A stretch of DNA of 64,000 nucleotides from an uncultured Candidatus Saccharibacteria bacterium. Lineage in GTDB: Bacteria; Patescibacteriota; Doudnabacteria; UBA920. Below are positions 59,013 through 63,200 of this stretch, piece after piece. Below the pieces are notes generated by a model. That model was not told the DNA's origin and did not search any database. It saw only the letters and a list, made by a program, of their open reading frames with translations. Both the position numbers and the translations under genes were made by a program. Position 1 is the stretch's first letter. Each line of letters opens with the position of its first letter. The stretch covers positions 68,493-132,492 of the forward strand of contig CAYYQK010000004.1 of assembly GCA_964473815.1 (NCBI GenBank). Reading direction: 5' to 3'.

Positions 59013-59040
59013 AAAAAGACCCGCGACGGGTCTTTTTTTA
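59013..59040. terminator. bidirectional intrinsic terminator
   Basis: aaagacccgcgacgggtcttttttta. Confidence 0.8.
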
Positions 59041-59045
59041 AATTG

Positions 59046-59438
59046 CTAGGCGGCTTTTTTCATACCTTTACCCAGAGTGCTTCTTACGGAACCTAATTTT
59101 CTATTAAGTTCATTGTATTGTTTTTCAAGCTCTGTATATTTTTGGGAGGAGTCGCCCCCCTTTAACCAACGCCCTAAGAAATTCTGGCTTTTAAATTCCT
59201 CCAAAGCCTGATTCTTCTGTGCTCCTAAATCGATTAAGGCTTGTTCAGCATCTTCGAGGGTATCAAAGCCTAAATCTTCAGTTAAAATTTTGACGGCTTG
59301 CTCTTTAGCATCGTATCTTTTCTCTGGAAATTCAACTACGTTATTGCTGAATTTTTCTTTTAATTCATTATATAAAGCTGGGTTATGTTCGGGCTGGTTT
59401 AGTTCTGGCTGAAATGCCGGCATTTCTCCGTGAGGCAT
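59046..59438 (-). CDS. hypothetical protein
   Basis: 130 aa, acidic, helical; no family recognised. Confidence 0.4.
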   Translation of the reverse strand: MPHGEMPAFQPELNQPEHNPALYNELKEKFSNNVVEFPEKRYDAKEQAVKILTEDLGFDTLEDAEQALIDLGAQKNQALEEFKSQNFLGRWLKGGDSSQKYTELEKQYNELNRKLGSVRSTLGKGMKKAA

Positions 59439-59442
59439 AAAA

Positions 59443-60357
59443 TTATTTTAATTTTGTTAAATAGTTTGCAGCGGCCATGGCAGCTTTAGCGCCTTCGCCT
59501 GCGCCAATAATAATTTGATCGCCCCAGGCATCATTAATGTCACCGGCTGCAAAAATCCCCGGGACTGAGGTTTGCAAATTGTTATCTACCATAATTTCTC
59601 CGAGATGATTCTTCTCAACCAAATTGGCGAAGTCCGCGCTTGGCACATAACCGATTTCCACAAACACACCCTGAACCGCTAAATCTTCGGCGGCTTTACC
59701 CAGCGGTTGAATCGAAATTCCTTCCACACTATCTTTGCCAGAAATTTTCGTCACCCTGGTCTGTGAATAGATTTTGATGTTTGACAAATGCATAATTTTA
59801 TCTTTCACGACTGCCTCACCATTAAAATCTGTTCCTATGTTAATCACATAAACCTGCTTGGCAACTTTGGACAGCGAACAAATGGCGTCCATGGCGCTGT
59901 TCCCTGCGCCAACCACGGCAACTGTTTTGTTTTTATATAGTGGAGCGTCACAGGTTGGACAAACCGCAACTCCGCGACCAAACAATTCTTTTTCGCCAGG
60001 TACACCGAGGTGTCGCGGCACTTTCCCTGACGCTATGATAACCGTTTTCGAATAATACACATTCCCCGTGCTATCCTCCACTGCCAAACTGGTAATATTT
60101 TTTTCTATCTTAGAAACAGTCACATCGAGTTTAACCTGCAAATCTTCTTTTAAAGAAGTCATATGCTCCTGAAATTTAAGTGCTAAATCTGCGCCGGAAA
60201 TCATTGAATAACCCGTGTAGTTTTCCACGTCTGCGCTCCAGATCATTTGGCCACCCAATTCTTTAGCCAACACTAGGGTATTCATTTTGCGACGAGCCGC
60301 GTAAATTGCGGCGGTCATGCCAGCTGGTCCTGCTCCAACAATTATGCAATCGTACAT
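59443..60357 (-). CDS. thioredoxin-reductase-like flavoprotein (CPTC active site, no HRRxxxR NADPH motif)
   Basis: FAD motif IIVGAGPAGMTAAIYAAR; redox dithiol AVCPTCDAPLY; second dinucleotide site VVGAGNSAMD…VYVINIGTDF instead of the canonical …HRRDxFRA. Confidence 0.7.
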   Translation of the reverse strand: MYDCIIVGAGPAGMTAAIYAARRKMNTLVLAKELGGQMIWSADVENYTGYSMISGADLALKFQEHMTSLKEDLQVKLDVTVSKIEKNITSLAVEDSTGNVYYSKTVIIASGKVPRHLGVPGEKELFGRGVAVCPTCDAPLYKNKTVAVVGAGNSAMDAICSLSKVAKQVYVINIGTDFNGEAVVKDKIMHLSNIKIYSQTRVTKISGKDSVEGISIQPLGKAAEDLAVQGVFVEIGYVPSADFANLVEKNHLGEIMVDNNLQTSVPGIFAAGDINDAWGDQIIIGAGEGAKAAMAAANYLTKLK

Positions 60358-60364
60358 GCACTAA

Positions 60365-61588
60365 TTATACCATCTTCTCGCTGATTCTTTGCAGTGCCAC
60401 GATGTACGCTGCGGTACGAAGTGTTGTGTTGTATTTCTTTGCAGCGTCGTGCACTGCAGCAAAGGCGGCAACCATGTGTTCATCAAGTTTTTTAAGCACA
60501 TCTTCCTTGCTCCACTTTTCATTATTCTGATTCTGATACCATTCAAAATAACTCACACACACTCCTCCGCTGTTTGCCAAAATGTCTGGCACAACTGTGA
60601 CGCTATTTTGGGCGAAAATGGCATCAGCTTCTGGAGTAGTCGGCCCATTGGCCATTTCTAAAATAAATTTGGCTTTGATTTTGCTAGCATTGTCGCCAGT
60701 CAAAACATTCTCTAACGCTGCCGGCACTAACACATCAACATCGAGTTCCAGTAATGCTTCATTGGTAATTTCTGTTGTTCCTTCCAGTCCTTTAAGTGCC
60801 CCAGTTTCTTTTTTATGCGCTTCAGCCGCAGCAACATCAATTCCATTTTCGTTAAATACACCGCCCTTACTGTCGGACAAAGCAACAATTTTAAAACCCT
60901 TTTCTTTAACATGTTCGGCTAAATATGTGGCAACATTTCCAAAGCCCTGAATGGCAATAGTTTTGCGATCACCTGAAACAAGGCCAGCGTTAATAGCTTC
61001 TCTCAAAACATAAGCCCCACCAAAACCAGTCGCCTCAGTACGGCCTTCGCTGCCGCCGTCATCGAGTGACTTACCGGTAATCACACCCGGCGCAGTAGTG
61101 CCGGAAAGTTTTTCGTATTCTTGGCGCATCCAACCCATGATTTGCCCATTAGTGTTTACATCTGGCGCTGGTACATCAATTTCAGGACCAAAGTTCCGCC
61201 ACATTTGCCGCATGTATCCACGACTAAGTCGTTCAAGTTCGCCTTCTGAAAGTTCTTTTGGATTAACGATGATCCCACCCTTACCGCCGCCAAAAGGAAC
61301 ATCAACCACTGCATTTTTAAAAGTCATCCAAAAACTTAATGCTCGCACTTCGTCCAAATTTACATCCTGATGATAACGAATTCCGCCTTTGTAAGGCCCA
61401 CGCGCGTTATTGTGTTGCGACCGAAATCCAGTGAAAATCTTTTGCTGGCCATTATCCAACAACACCGGTATAGAAACTTCGATATAGCGATCAGGATTCT
61501 TGAGTCGTTCTACTATATTAGCGTCCGCGCCCATTACTTTCGCGGCTGCGTCGAGCTGCGACTTCGCTGATTCAAATGGATTATTCAT
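60365..61588 (-). CDS. Glu/Leu/Phe/Val-family dehydrogenase (glutamate dehydrogenase-like)
   Basis: Substrate-site VPFGGGKGGI, Rossmann GFGNVATYLA. Confidence 0.85.
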   Translation of the reverse strand: MNNPFESAKSQLDAAAKVMGADANIVERLKNPDRYIEVSIPVLLDNGQQKIFTGFRSQHNNARGPYKGGIRYHQDVNLDEVRALSFWMTFKNAVVDVPFGGGKGGIIVNPKELSEGELERLSRGYMRQMWRNFGPEIDVPAPDVNTNGQIMGWMRQEYEKLSGTTAPGVITGKSLDDGGSEGRTEATGFGGAYVLREAINAGLVSGDRKTIAIQGFGNVATYLAEHVKEKGFKIVALSDSKGGVFNENGIDVAAAEAHKKETGALKGLEGTTEITNEALLELDVDVLVPAALENVLTGDNASKIKAKFILEMANGPTTPEADAIFAQNSVTVVPDILANSGGVCVSYFEWYQNQNNEKWSKEDVLKKLDEHMVAAFAAVHDAAKKYNTTLRTAAYIVALQRISEKMV

Positions 61589-61610
61589 AAATTTATATTA
61601 AATTTATTTC

Positions 61611-62540
61611 TTAAATCTTTGCCTGTTCGGATAAATATTTTTCCGCATCAAGTGCGGCCTTGCATCCTTCGCCCGCAGAAGTTACAGCCTGTCGATAGCG
61701 GTGGTCATGCACATCCCCTGCTACAAACACCCCTTCAATGTTGGTTTGGGTAAATTCTTTGCTCAAAATATAGCCCATCGAGTCGACTTCCACGCCAGCT
61801 TCTTGGAAAATCTTTGATGCCGGTGAATGACCAATGGCCACGAAGTATCCTTGCGCTGCAATCTCTCGCTCTTCACCAGTTTCGTTGTCACGCACGCGCA
61901 AACCGCTAAACGAGTCTTCTCCTAATATGTCTACTACTGTAACATTAGTCACAAATGAAATCTTTGGATTGTCCTGTGCCCGCTTCAACATAATTTTCGA
62001 TGCCTTAAAATTGTTGCTGCGATTTACAATCGTTACTGTCTTGCCAAACTTTGTTAAGAAAGTAGCTTCTTCCATGGCACTATCACCACCACCAATTACC
62101 ACAATATCTAAATCTTTAAAAAAGAAGCCATCACATGTTGCGCAAGCAGTCACGCCACGGCCTCGCAAACGAGTTTCGTTTTCTAAGCCCAACCATTTAA
62201 CCTCGGCACCAGTCGCAATAATTACAGATTCGGCTTGGTATTCGTTGCTATCTGTTTTTACTTTGAATGGCTTGCTAGAAAAATCCGCACTAACCACACT
62301 TTCCTGCACAATTTTTGCGCCAAAACGTTCAGCCTGCTTAGTCATGTTCTGCATCAATTCCGGGCCTTGAATGGCTTCAGGGAATCCAGGAAAATTTTCT
62401 ACGTCAGTGGTAATTGTTAACTGGCCGCCGGGTTGTATTCCGGAAATTACTAATGGCTCCATTTCCGCGCGTGCGGCATATAACGCGGCAGTTAGTCCTG
62501 CTGGTCCACTCCCAATTATTAATACTTTATTTGTGTCCAT
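61611..62540 (-). CDS. trxB: thioredoxin-reductase-like flavoprotein (CATC active site)
   Basis: IIGSGPAGLTAALYAAR, CATCDGFF, GGGDSAMEEATFLTKFG…NRSNNF (HRR replaced by NRS). Start at MDTNKV (62540), 13 nt after the regulator stop. The ORF track extends to 62642. Confidence 0.75.
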   Translation of the reverse strand: MDTNKVLIIGSGPAGLTAALYAARAEMEPLVISGIQPGGQLTITTDVENFPGFPEAIQGPELMQNMTKQAERFGAKIVQESVVSADFSSKPFKVKTDSNEYQAESVIIATGAEVKWLGLENETRLRGRGVTACATCDGFFFKDLDIVVIGGGDSAMEEATFLTKFGKTVTIVNRSNNFKASKIMLKRAQDNPKISFVTNVTVVDILGEDSFSGLRVRDNETGEEREIAAQGYFVAIGHSPASKIFQEAGVEVDSMGYILSKEFTQTNIEGVFVAGDVHDHRYRQAVTSAGEGCKAALDAEKYLSEQAKI

Positions 62541-62553
62541 ATATTTCGTCTTT

Positions 62554-62823
62554 CTATTTCTTTGAATAAATCTTGATAATTTCCTGAACTGCTTCTTTGC
62601 GTTTACTTGGGCTTGAGCTTTTTGCATCGAGTACACATTCACCCAGATATCCTTCCAGAACCAGAGTGTTAACTTTCTTCATCGCCTCTATTACCGCGTG
62701 TCCCTGGTTTAGGATATCCATGCAGTAAGCGCCCTTGTCGACCATGTCGGCCACGGCTCGTACATGCCCTTCAATGTAGCGTAACCGCTTCACTAAATCG
62801 GCTTTATTTTCTATTTTCGACAT
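62554..62823 (-). CDS. CsoR/RcnR/FrmR-family repressor with a CstR-like Cys-Tyr-Cys fingerprint
   Basis: LRYIEGHVRAVADMV…AYCMDILNQ…LEGYLGECVLD aligns with CsoR RxEGQ…YCxDxL…H-x-x-x-C. The His ligand is replaced by Tyr; two Cys are retained (C34, C63). Confidence 0.65.
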   Translation of the reverse strand: MSKIENKADLVKRLRYIEGHVRAVADMVDKGAYCMDILNQGHAVIEAMKKVNTLVLEGYLGECVLDAKSSSPSKRKEAVQEIIKIYSKK

Positions 62824-62863
62824 AAATTATTGATAAATTCTTAAAATTTCAATTTCTCTTCGT

Positions 62864-62880
62864 ACCCCCCACAGGGGGGT
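62864..62880. promoter_or_regulatory. G/C-tract palindrome ACCCCCC-ACA-GGGGGGT (CsoR/RcnR-type operator)
   Basis: Located 41-57 nt upstream of the regulator gene, in the divergent intergenic region. Confidence 0.55.
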
Positions 62881-62905
62881 CTATATTTGTATATTACTCT
62901 CCCCT

Positions 62906-62934
62906 CTTGACTTCTGTCAAATTAAGGAGTATAC
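62906..62934 (+). promoter_or_regulatory. sigma70-like promoter TTGACT-17-TATACT
   Basis: TTGACTtctgtcaaattaaggagTATACT, facing the 62991 gene. Confidence 0.55.
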
Positions 62935-62990
62935 TCTAGCGTCCGGTGCGTTTCCAGTGCCGGAAATTAACGGAGGGCGGAAAGGACTCT

Positions 62991-63200
62991 ATGACAGTTC
63001 ACAAAGCTATGCGGACTGTAGCCGCAGCCACCAAAGCTGCGCACGTCCATCAGATGCTGGGCGTAGTAATTATAGTGGCGCACGCATCTGAAATCGCCCG
63101 AGTGGTGATGGAAATCAACATCTGGCATCTGGCCACAGCGCTGACACTATTCAGCATCTGGATGGCCACCACCAAAGGAGGATTGTCCGAACTGGCATAG
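62991..63200 (+). CDS. hypothetical small hydrophobic His-containing protein
   Basis: GGAAAGGA SD then ATG at MTVHKAMR…; divergent from the CsoR-like regulator. The ORF track starts at 62946. Confidence 0.35.
   Translation: MTVHKAMRTVAAATKAAHVHQMLGVVIIVAHASEIARVVMEINIWHLATALTLFSIWMATTKGGLSELA

Follow-up and report, generated by a model that had tools for sequence, protein, structure and literature searches.

In the current study, we analysed a 64,000-nt stretch of contig CAYYQK010000004.1 from an uncultured Candidatus Saccharibacteria bacterium (hereafter the window), focusing on an operon that is headed by a CsoR-family repressor and contains two thioredoxin reductase-like genes. Five open reading frames (ORFs) on the minus strand at 59046-62823 form one tight operon with gaps of 13, 22, 7, and 4 nt, in the order regulator, TRX1, GDH, TRX2, and a small ORF, and the gene order and names given in an earlier sequence-only reading of this DNA were confirmed, as Pfam and NCBIfam agree with them. 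The regulator (62554-62823) is an 89-aa CsoR-family repressor with the sensor positions x-Cys34-Tyr59-Cys63. TRX1 (61611-62540) is a low-Mr thioredoxin reductase (TrxR; TIGR01292) of 309 aa counted from its ATG; a 343-aa ORF starting at a GTG would overlap the regulator, and an independent gene call on the source contig, a 135-kb metagenome scaffold (ENA ERZ28615168), takes the 309-aa start. GDH (60365-61588) is a hexameric glutamate dehydrogenase of the ELFV family, carrying both ELFV_dehydrog domains (PF00208 and PF02812), and TRX2 (59443-60357) is a 304-aa TrxR/AhpF-like flavoprotein disulfide reductase with the motifs CPTC, GAGNSA, and NIGTDFN. The last ORF (59046-59438; 130 aa, ending in ...KKAA), located 4 nt from TRX2, has no assigned function and no match in the Pfam or NCBIfam scans, and its homologues are found only in the closest relatives (L003, L005, and L007). 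A predicted sigma-70-like promoter of the regulator lies on the minus strand at 62891-62920 (TTGACA at 62920-62915, an 18-nt spacer, and TAATAT at 62896-62891; 10 of 12 positions matching), and a perfect 7+3+7 palindrome, ACCCCCC-ACA-GGGGGGT, is found between this promoter and the regulator at 62864-62880.

The regulator matched PF02583 over profile positions 2-76 of 78, scoring 81.6 bits where the cutoff is 22.8. The HMMER alignment to solved members of the family (S. lividans 4adz, Geobacillus 4m1p, InrS, and M. tuberculosis CsoR) placed Cys34 and Cys63 on the two copper-ligand cysteines and Tyr59 on the ligand histidine, in agreement with the earlier claim that the copper-ligating His is replaced by Tyr. 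The match to 4adz (E 4e-11, 35-37% identity) was better than that to the S. pneumoniae CstR (SpCstR) structure 7mq1 (E 2e-4, 22-23%). An AlphaFold model of the regulator (pLDDT 89.6) consists of three helices (residues 3-29, 34-67, and 72-87), the second of which opens with Cys34 and holds Tyr59 and Cys63 near its end, as in the CsoR family. In the Foldseek search with this model, the 21 top-ranked matches were all CsoR, InrS, FrmR, or CstR, with identities of 33-37% to copper CsoRs and InrS and 22-23% to the S. pneumoniae CstR.

In the alignment of 29 sequences, Cys34, Tyr59, and Cys63 do not vary. Among 120 regulator homologues, Cys34, Cys63, and the preceding Tyr33 are present in every sequence, and the position of Tyr59 (the Y position) is occupied by Tyr in 114 and by His in 6; the second-shell residues Tyr33 and Glu81 are conserved in the regulator alignment as well. 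The Cys-Tyr-Cys arrangement is a property of the clade and not a sequencing oddity. A comparison with the CsoR, CstR, RcnR, and FrmR classes, of the kind proposed earlier as a check of the fingerprint residues, returned this Cys-Tyr-Cys arrangement and none of the fingerprints of RcnR, InrS, or FrmR. The RcnR/InrS set (H-C-H-H or H-C-H-C) is absent, as the N-terminus, MSKIENK, contains no His and the Y position is Tyr, and the RcnR model scored 28.9 against a cutoff of 138. The FrmR set (Pro2-C-H-x) is also absent, with no Pro2 and a score of 34.8 against the FrmR cutoff of 133. The x-C-H-C ligand set of Cu(I)-CsoR is interrupted by Tyr59 at the His position. Concerning CstR, the x-C-x-C feature is found in the regulator (Cys34/Cys63) and all 120 homologues, but the wedge Asn (x-C-N-C) of the characterised Firmicute clusters (PMC11672702) is not, its place being taken by Tyr59 or, in six homologues, by His. 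In an alignment to a CstR sequence, Tyr59 falls on Asn56, and this serves as a lead only. By the features tested, the regulator does not appear to be a CstR, although it may plausibly work as a dithiol switch like CstR.

The palindrome noted in the earlier reading is present as described. The sequence ACCCCCCACAGGGGGGT is the sole match in the window even when two mismatches are allowed, with 0.01 matches expected, so that no further operator copies were found in the 64 kb that would widen the regulon. Its start lies 11 bp downstream of the -10 hexamer, so that it covers the predicted transcription start. For comparison, 33 related loci were fetched, 28 of them from Patescibacteria (257 kb in the 28 loci, up to ~10 kb each), the close relatives being metagenome-assembled genomes (MAGs) labelled Saccharibacteria, Doudnabacteria, or Patescibacteria. 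Of the 28 Patescibacteria loci, 26 have a single site of the form A-C5-7-N2-5-G5-7-T, in each case immediately before the regulator gene, and the remaining two contain degenerate versions. When 29 sites were aligned on their centres, full conservation (100%) was seen at A(-8), C(-7 to -3), G(+4 to +7), and T(+8), whereas the spacer and flanks reached about 59% at most, with the two exceptions of A(-10) (86%) and A(+9) (76%). In nearly all 29 sites, the stretch from the start of the C-run to the end of the G-run is 15 bp long. The promoter layout (-35, about 17-18 nt, -10, and 7-11 nt to the operator) also recurs in most of 30 related loci. A G/C-tract inverted repeat with A/T flanks in the regulator's own promoter is a trait of the CsoR family, and the palindrome is of the same type as the CsoR-family cst operator ATATACCCTTATGGGGTATAT (PMC8643695). 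Judged by this pattern of conservation, the site would be the phylogenetic footprint of a protein-binding site, and the G/C-tract palindrome is very probably the operator of the regulator.

The content of the operon was also compared across these loci. A TRX1 orthologue stands directly after the regulator in all 28 Patescibacteria loci and additionally in L034-L036, and GDH lies downstream of TRX1 in 24 of the 28. Direct membership of TRX2 in the operon is limited to the window and the relatives nearest to it (L003-L008); in the others, opposite-strand genes set it apart and it has no operator of its own. About ten relatives carry flavin genes between TRX1 and GDH, and the inserted flavokinase, EamA, and riboflavin genes therefore link the regulon to flavin supply. 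Because of this synteny across loci, the conserved core is the regulator and TrxR, with GDH and the flavin-supply genes as frequent members and TRX2 as a lineage-dependent one. The earlier proposal that regulator, TrxR, and GDH form a thiol-redox unit is supported, and the unit is conserved; the synteny in 28 of 28 loci and the single operator in 26 of 28 give it far more weight than the sequence-only reading could.

The neighbours of the regulator in the relatives are TrxR, GDH, flavokinase, EamA, riboflavin genes, and a protease. A stand-alone flavokinase and an EamA-family transporter were observed in the operon at L009 (2828-4152), L012, L013, L016, L025, L026, L027, and L035 (7680-9174); L014 (2309-3776) has flavokinase, riboflavin synthase, and lumazine synthase instead. 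Riboflavin import is known for some members of the EamA family. Between GDH and TRX2, the loci L001 (2667-4229), L010, L015, L017, and L019 carry a gene for a trypsin-like serine protease of about 520 aa, which in four of the five runs on the opposite strand. At the position of TRX2, half-length TRX2-like ORFs of 170-176 aa were found at L022 (9507-10034), L027 (8080-8607), L034 (8836-9348), and L035 (9195-9719), followed in L034 and L035 by a 718-734-aa protein with no confident family match; these short ORFs may be either truncated genes or a short form in its own right. No redox motif is present in the small ORFs on either side of TRX2 in the relatives.

The best explanation of the locus, which we hold to be slightly more probable than not, is an autoregulated operon under a CsoR-family thiol-redox repressor. 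That an autoregulated repressor acts at the predicted operator on this operon is very likely; for thiol oxidation, and not a metal, as the signal, the odds are about even. The earlier idea of a CsoR-fold sensor for something other than copper, linked by a G/C-tract operator to the thioredoxin system, gains strong support from the comparative data, which suggest that this is probably an undescribed thiol-redox switch and not a metal sensor. Members of the family with the x-C-x-C arrangement are known sensors of thiol chemistry (PMC8643695, PMC11672702), and the known CsoR-family inducers are Cu(I), Ni/Co, formaldehyde, and persulfide (PMC11672702).

In the mechanism that we propose, the reduced repressor, a tetramer by family analogy, would bind the A-C6-N3-G6-T operator over the start of its own promoter and block transcription of the regulator, TrxR, GDH, the second TrxR-like gene, and the small ORF. 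The sensor site would be the intersubunit Cys34/Cys63' pair, in which Tyr59 (His in a few relatives) would be a packing or hydrogen-bonding residue and not a metal ligand. Thiol-oxidising stress, such as peroxide, disulfide, or reactive sulfur species, would oxidise or cross-link the Cys pair, and the oxidised repressor would leave the DNA, so that thioredoxin reductase could be made. Derepression would also provide a GDH able to regenerate NAD(P)H from glutamate and, in the relatives, the flavokinase and EamA transporter that would supply flavin. Finally, reduced thioredoxin would re-reduce the repressor, closing the loop.

Several observations weigh against this explanation. Among the 28 loci, TRX2 has no operator before it in those relatives in which it forms a unit of its own. 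The 64-kb window yielded neither a thioredoxin or peroxiredoxin gene with the operator nor any thioredoxin-like CxxC protein. The inducer is deduced from the sensor residues and the regulon content, and a Cys-His-Cys sub-branch of the regulator, whose members have all the copper ligands, stands at the head of this operon too, making a thiophilic metal signal possible. Furthermore, the palindrome would also be transcribed as a hairpin, so that part of its conservation could serve the mRNA: it would fold as a 7-bp hairpin at the mRNA 5' end, the 63-nt leader having a minimum free energy of -15.4 kcal/mol (z = -2.4).

Concerning the enzymes, the sequence-only reading had claimed that both TrxRs lack the NADPH motif and had suggested the use of NADH or a ferredoxin-type reductant. 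TRX1 scored 395.9 against TIGR01292 (cutoff 343.45) and matched mycobacterial TrxRs with E of 1e-101 to 1e-102. It contains CATC, GGGDSAMEE, and the thioredoxin-contact residues GRG...DGFFF. With the TrxR motif definitions taken from PMC5627308, the pattern VxxxHRRDxxR is missing: VTIVNRSNNFK of TRX1 aligns to VTLVHRRDEFR of M. tuberculosis TrxR. One Arg and one Lys of the 2'-phosphate motif are kept, so the claim of a lost motif holds for TRX1 only in part. Apart from this motif, TRX1 is by every measure a canonical low-Mr TrxR. The orthologues in the 28 loci form a series: 22 have HRRxxF[K/R], four (L006, L008, L012, and L016) have HRS, and L013 shares NRS with the window itself; in L028 the gene is split and the motif is unreadable. 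Because 22 of 28 orthologues keep HRRxxF[KR], the loss of the motif in TRX1 is recent and partial and not a feature of the system.

The claim holds entirely for TRX2. TRX2 scored 282 against TIGR01292, below the cutoff of 343.45, and about equally (273.6) against the C-terminal half of the AhpF model, and among solved structures it is closest to M. mazei TrxR and the C-terminal half of AhpF. Within its VYVINIGTDFN segment, NIGTDFN falls on HRRDHLK of M. mazei TrxR and on EFAPEMK of AhpF. All 16 TRX2 orthologues scored are without HRR and show the pattern IN-x3-(D/E)-x2-G-(D/E), with GxGNSA kept; the Glu found in AhpF at the end of strand 2 is absent from TRX2. TRX2 aligns only to AhpF residues 213-518 and has no N-terminal double thioredoxin-fold domain. 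The substitution of CPTC for CATC, also noted earlier, is real and unique to this genome, CATC being present in 17 of 18 readable orthologues and CAAC in one. TRX2 as an FFTR, DDOR, or TRi was considered and rejected on motif and similarity (PMC10880999; PMC5627308): the FFTR structures 6gna, 6gnc, and 6gnd matched TRX2 with E of 1e-26 to 1e-31, compared with 1e-57 for NTR and AhpF. FFTRs are without both GxGxxA and HRRxxxR (PMC10880999), and because TRX2 retains GxGxxA, a ferredoxin-type enzyme is unlikely.

GDH of the operon is closest to the Thermococcus and Pyrococcus GDHs (E of about 1e-130) and has the nucleotide loop VA(V/L)SDSKGG in common with them. The GDHs of Thermococcales are NADP-linked. 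A role of GDH as the NADPH source for TrxR would fit these data. A joint NADPH-to-NADH switch of GDH and TRX1 was also considered and rejected, as the predicted co-variation of the GDH cofactor loop was not seen: no column of the loop segregates with the HRR, HRS, or NRS state of TRX1, and VALSDSKGG is nearly invariant.

An even chance may be given to the reading in which TRX1 is an ordinary NADPH-dependent TrxR whose 2'-phosphate site has slightly decayed, TRX2 is an AhpF/Nox-like disulfide reductase that prefers NADH and whose partner is unnamed, and neither uses ferredoxin. For TRX1, this reading agrees with the passing TIGR01292 score, the match of about 1e-102 to the NADPH-dependent mycobacterial TrxRs, the retained GGGDSA, Arg, and Lys, and the motif kept by most of its orthologues, but enzymes with a motif of one basic residue, such as DvTRi, use no NAD(P)H (PMC5627308). 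For TRX2, the retained GAGNSA, the equal score to the AhpF C-terminal half, and the far weaker matches of FFTR structures (1e-27 to 1e-31), which lack GxGxxA (PMC10880999), point the same way, although the acidic residue that would favour NADH is missing at the AhpF Glu position. The earlier suggestion on reductants is not well supported: the motif loss in TRX1 is specific to this lineage, TRX2 keeps GxGxxA, and the GDH nucleotide loop does not change along with the TRX1 motif.

We consider it unlikely that the regulator is a genuine persulfide sensor, in which reactive sulfur species would bridge Cys34 and Cys63' as a di-, tri-, or tetrasulfide and TrxR would reduce protein or low-molecular-weight persulfides. 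Its x-C-x-C spacing equals that of SpCstR (C30/N55/C59, 25 + 4 residues; PMC8643695), and actinomycete candidate CstR clusters are also without the wedge Asn (PMC11672702). Nevertheless, no sulfurtransferase, rhodanese, persulfide dioxygenase, SQR, CoA-persulfide reductase, or TauE was found in the 28 neighbourhoods, and the regulon consists of general thiol-reducing machinery. Sulfurtransferase, persulfide dioxygenase, and CoA-persulfide reductase genes are the defining neighbours in cst operons. The identity to SpCstR (22-23%) is also below that to Cu-CsoRs (33-37%), and the wedge Asn is absent. The CstR-type label that the sequence-only reading had attached to the regulator is therefore not supported, on account of the missing wedge Asn and sulfur neighbours, the closer similarity to Cu-CsoR, and the Cys-His-Cys relatives and His/Tyr swap described below.

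Outside the clade, the nearest relatives of the regulator (L029-L032; 39-45% identity) come from Anaerolineae, a Gammaproteobacteria-labelled MAG, and Butyricicoccus. They carry Cys-His-Cys, the canonical set, and stand beside P-type ATPases with GMTCxxC and CPC motifs, which are CopA. Inside the clade, the six His-bearing members group together in a neighbour-joining tree. Loci were examined for three of these six, P0092 (L014), P0111, and P0119, and all three regulators still head a TrxR/flavokinase/EamA or GDH operon behind the same operator, with TRX1 directly after P0111 and P0119 too. Apart from this residue, P0092 (His) and P0112 (Tyr) differ very little. Since the His-type loci keep the operon, the link to trxB is independent of the Tyr, and His and Tyr are interchangeable. 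This swap is hard to reconcile with the Y residue as an essential copper ligand, and easy to reconcile with a packing or hydrogen-bonding role like that of the CstR wedge Asn (PMC8643695, PMC11672702). The most economical history would be the capture of a copper-type CsoR by a trxB operon, followed by the loss of the His. A third Cys in helix 1 (AVC[K/R]M, at Ala25 of the window protein) was observed in a sub-branch comprising P0092, P0105, P0111, P0112, and P0118-P0120, which holds five of the six His-type regulators.

A sensor of Cu(I) or another thiophilic metal would bind the metal on Cys34/Cys63', with the His added in the Cys-His-Cys branch, and the repressor would be freed and TrxR induced since metals deplete or oxidise thiols. 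The closest solved relatives and the outside homologues being copper CsoRs, the three His-type loci heading the same operon, and the conserved second-shell Tyr33 and Glu81 all speak for such a sensor, yet we judge it improbable. The ligand His is Tyr in 114 of 120 members and interchanges with Tyr between near-identical proteins, and the CsoR His is needed for allosteric switching. Moreover, none of the 28 loci has copA, copZ, or another metal efflux gene as a neighbour, and neither copA nor copZ turned up among the scanned neighbouring genes of the window or when all of its ORFs were searched for CxxC motifs. As a benchmark, the affinity of CsoR for Cu(I) is about 10^-18 M according to a cited review.

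That the palindrome is mainly an RNA element, a 5' stem-loop stabilising the operon mRNA or gating its translation while the regulator binds elsewhere or nowhere, is quite improbable: its place just downstream of the predicted start, the 7-bp G/C hairpin with the leader folding energy given above, and its terminator-like score would suit such an element, but no compensatory change occurs across the 29 sites, which always have the C-run and then the G-run, the A and T are fixed 17 bp apart while the loop varies, and this pattern is predicted by sequence-specific protein recognition and matches the operator type of the family (PMC8643695). The absence of compensatory changes argues that the sequence, and not only the pairing, is under selection. 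The RNA and operator roles of the palindrome are compatible with each other. The palindrome was also considered as a terminator, and this was rejected because no gene on either strand ends there.

As for the surroundings of the operon, a bidirectional terminator-like hairpin, AAAAAGACCCG-CGA-CGGGTCTTTTTTT, lies at 59013-59039 between the convergent efp and the operon; it is perfect and followed by a T-run, and was read from the sequence, being unlisted by the terminator scan. On the plus strand, a divergent gene (62991-63200) was called for a 69-aa small hydrophobic protein with a promoter of its own (TTGACT-17-TATACT, 62907-62935). This ORF has no Pfam match; homologues occur at the same divergent position in 13 related loci and have an AHASE(I/L)-like motif in common. 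Its -35 hexamer stands back to back with that of the regulator, and the two form a palindrome, TTGACA-N2-TGTCAA, which is seen again in many loci.

The genomes of Patescibacteria are tiny, recognisable regulators are few in them, and little is understood of how these bacteria deal with oxygen and oxidants. A conserved switch with a single operator before TrxR would provide a concrete, testable handle on this question, for which one short protein and a 17-bp site suffice in vitro. For the CsoR field, the locus would represent a natural example of a copper-type scaffold that now serves a thiol-redox regulon. The literature searched contains no report of such a regulon for this family, and the His/Tyr interchange at a key ligand position bears on specificity for metal versus thiol chemistry. 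HRR, HRS, and NRS, the motif variants that occur in closely related TrxR orthologues, offer a series for the study of NADPH/NADH specificity. Full-text literature searches on this question returned no CsoR-family regulator of trxB and no description in Saccharibacteria/Patescibacteria. Tentatively, and with somewhat less than an even chance, we suggest that the regulator may represent a fifth functional CsoR class, a general switch for thiol oxidation, as in disulfide or peroxide stress, that is dedicated to the thioredoxin system in a large lineage of Patescibacteria, which would co-ordinate reductase, flavin supply, and an NAD(P)H-generating GDH and would have arisen by regulon capture of a copper sensor with subsequent loss of the His.

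Among known systems, Cu(I)-CsoR (4adz, 4m1p; cluster 1 of the sequence similarity network in PMC8643695) is the best match in sequence and fold (E 4e-11, 33-37%, TM about 0.8). The two have in common the three-helix protomer, a Cys at the start of helix 2 and another near its end, the Tyr-Cys and Glu of the second shell, a G/C-tract inverted-repeat operator with A/T flanks, and a regulator that would be the autoregulated first gene of its operon. In contrast, the His is Tyr in 114 of 120 homologues here, CopA/CopZ are not nearby, the tracts are longer (C6-N3-G6), and the regulon consists of thioredoxin reductase, GDH, and flavin genes. CstR of S. aureus, E. faecalis, and S. pneumoniae (7mq1) resembles the regulator in the formal x-C-x-C, the identical spacing of the Cys and Y positions, the operator type (ATACCC-N4-GGGGTAT), and plausibly an intersubunit dithiol switch, but differs in having the wedge Asn instead of Tyr, an identity of 22-26%, and cst-type sulfur-oxidation genes in place of a thioredoxin regulon.

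Known thiol-based regulators of trxB are sigmaR-RsrA of Streptomyces, Spx of Bacillus, and OxyR, in which a Cys switch senses disulfide or oxidative stress and raises TrxR, which resets the switch; the logic proposed here is the same. Their folds and mechanisms are unrelated, these being an anti-sigma factor, an RNA polymerase-binding protein, and a LysR activator, respectively, whereas a CsoR-fold repressor would take this part here. Finally, TRX2, and here also TRX1, are similar to the atypical TrxRs (DvTRi with TQ/NGK, the NADH-using D. vulgaris TR3, T. acidophilum TR, clostridial FFTR, and Gloeobacter DDOR) in having no Arg-rich motif while keeping the FAD motifs and CxxC. However, TRX2 keeps GxGxxA, unlike FFTR and TRi, its IN-x3-(D/E)-x2-G-(D/E) pattern fits no described signature, and its best matches are NTRs and AhpF rather than FFTR or DDOR.

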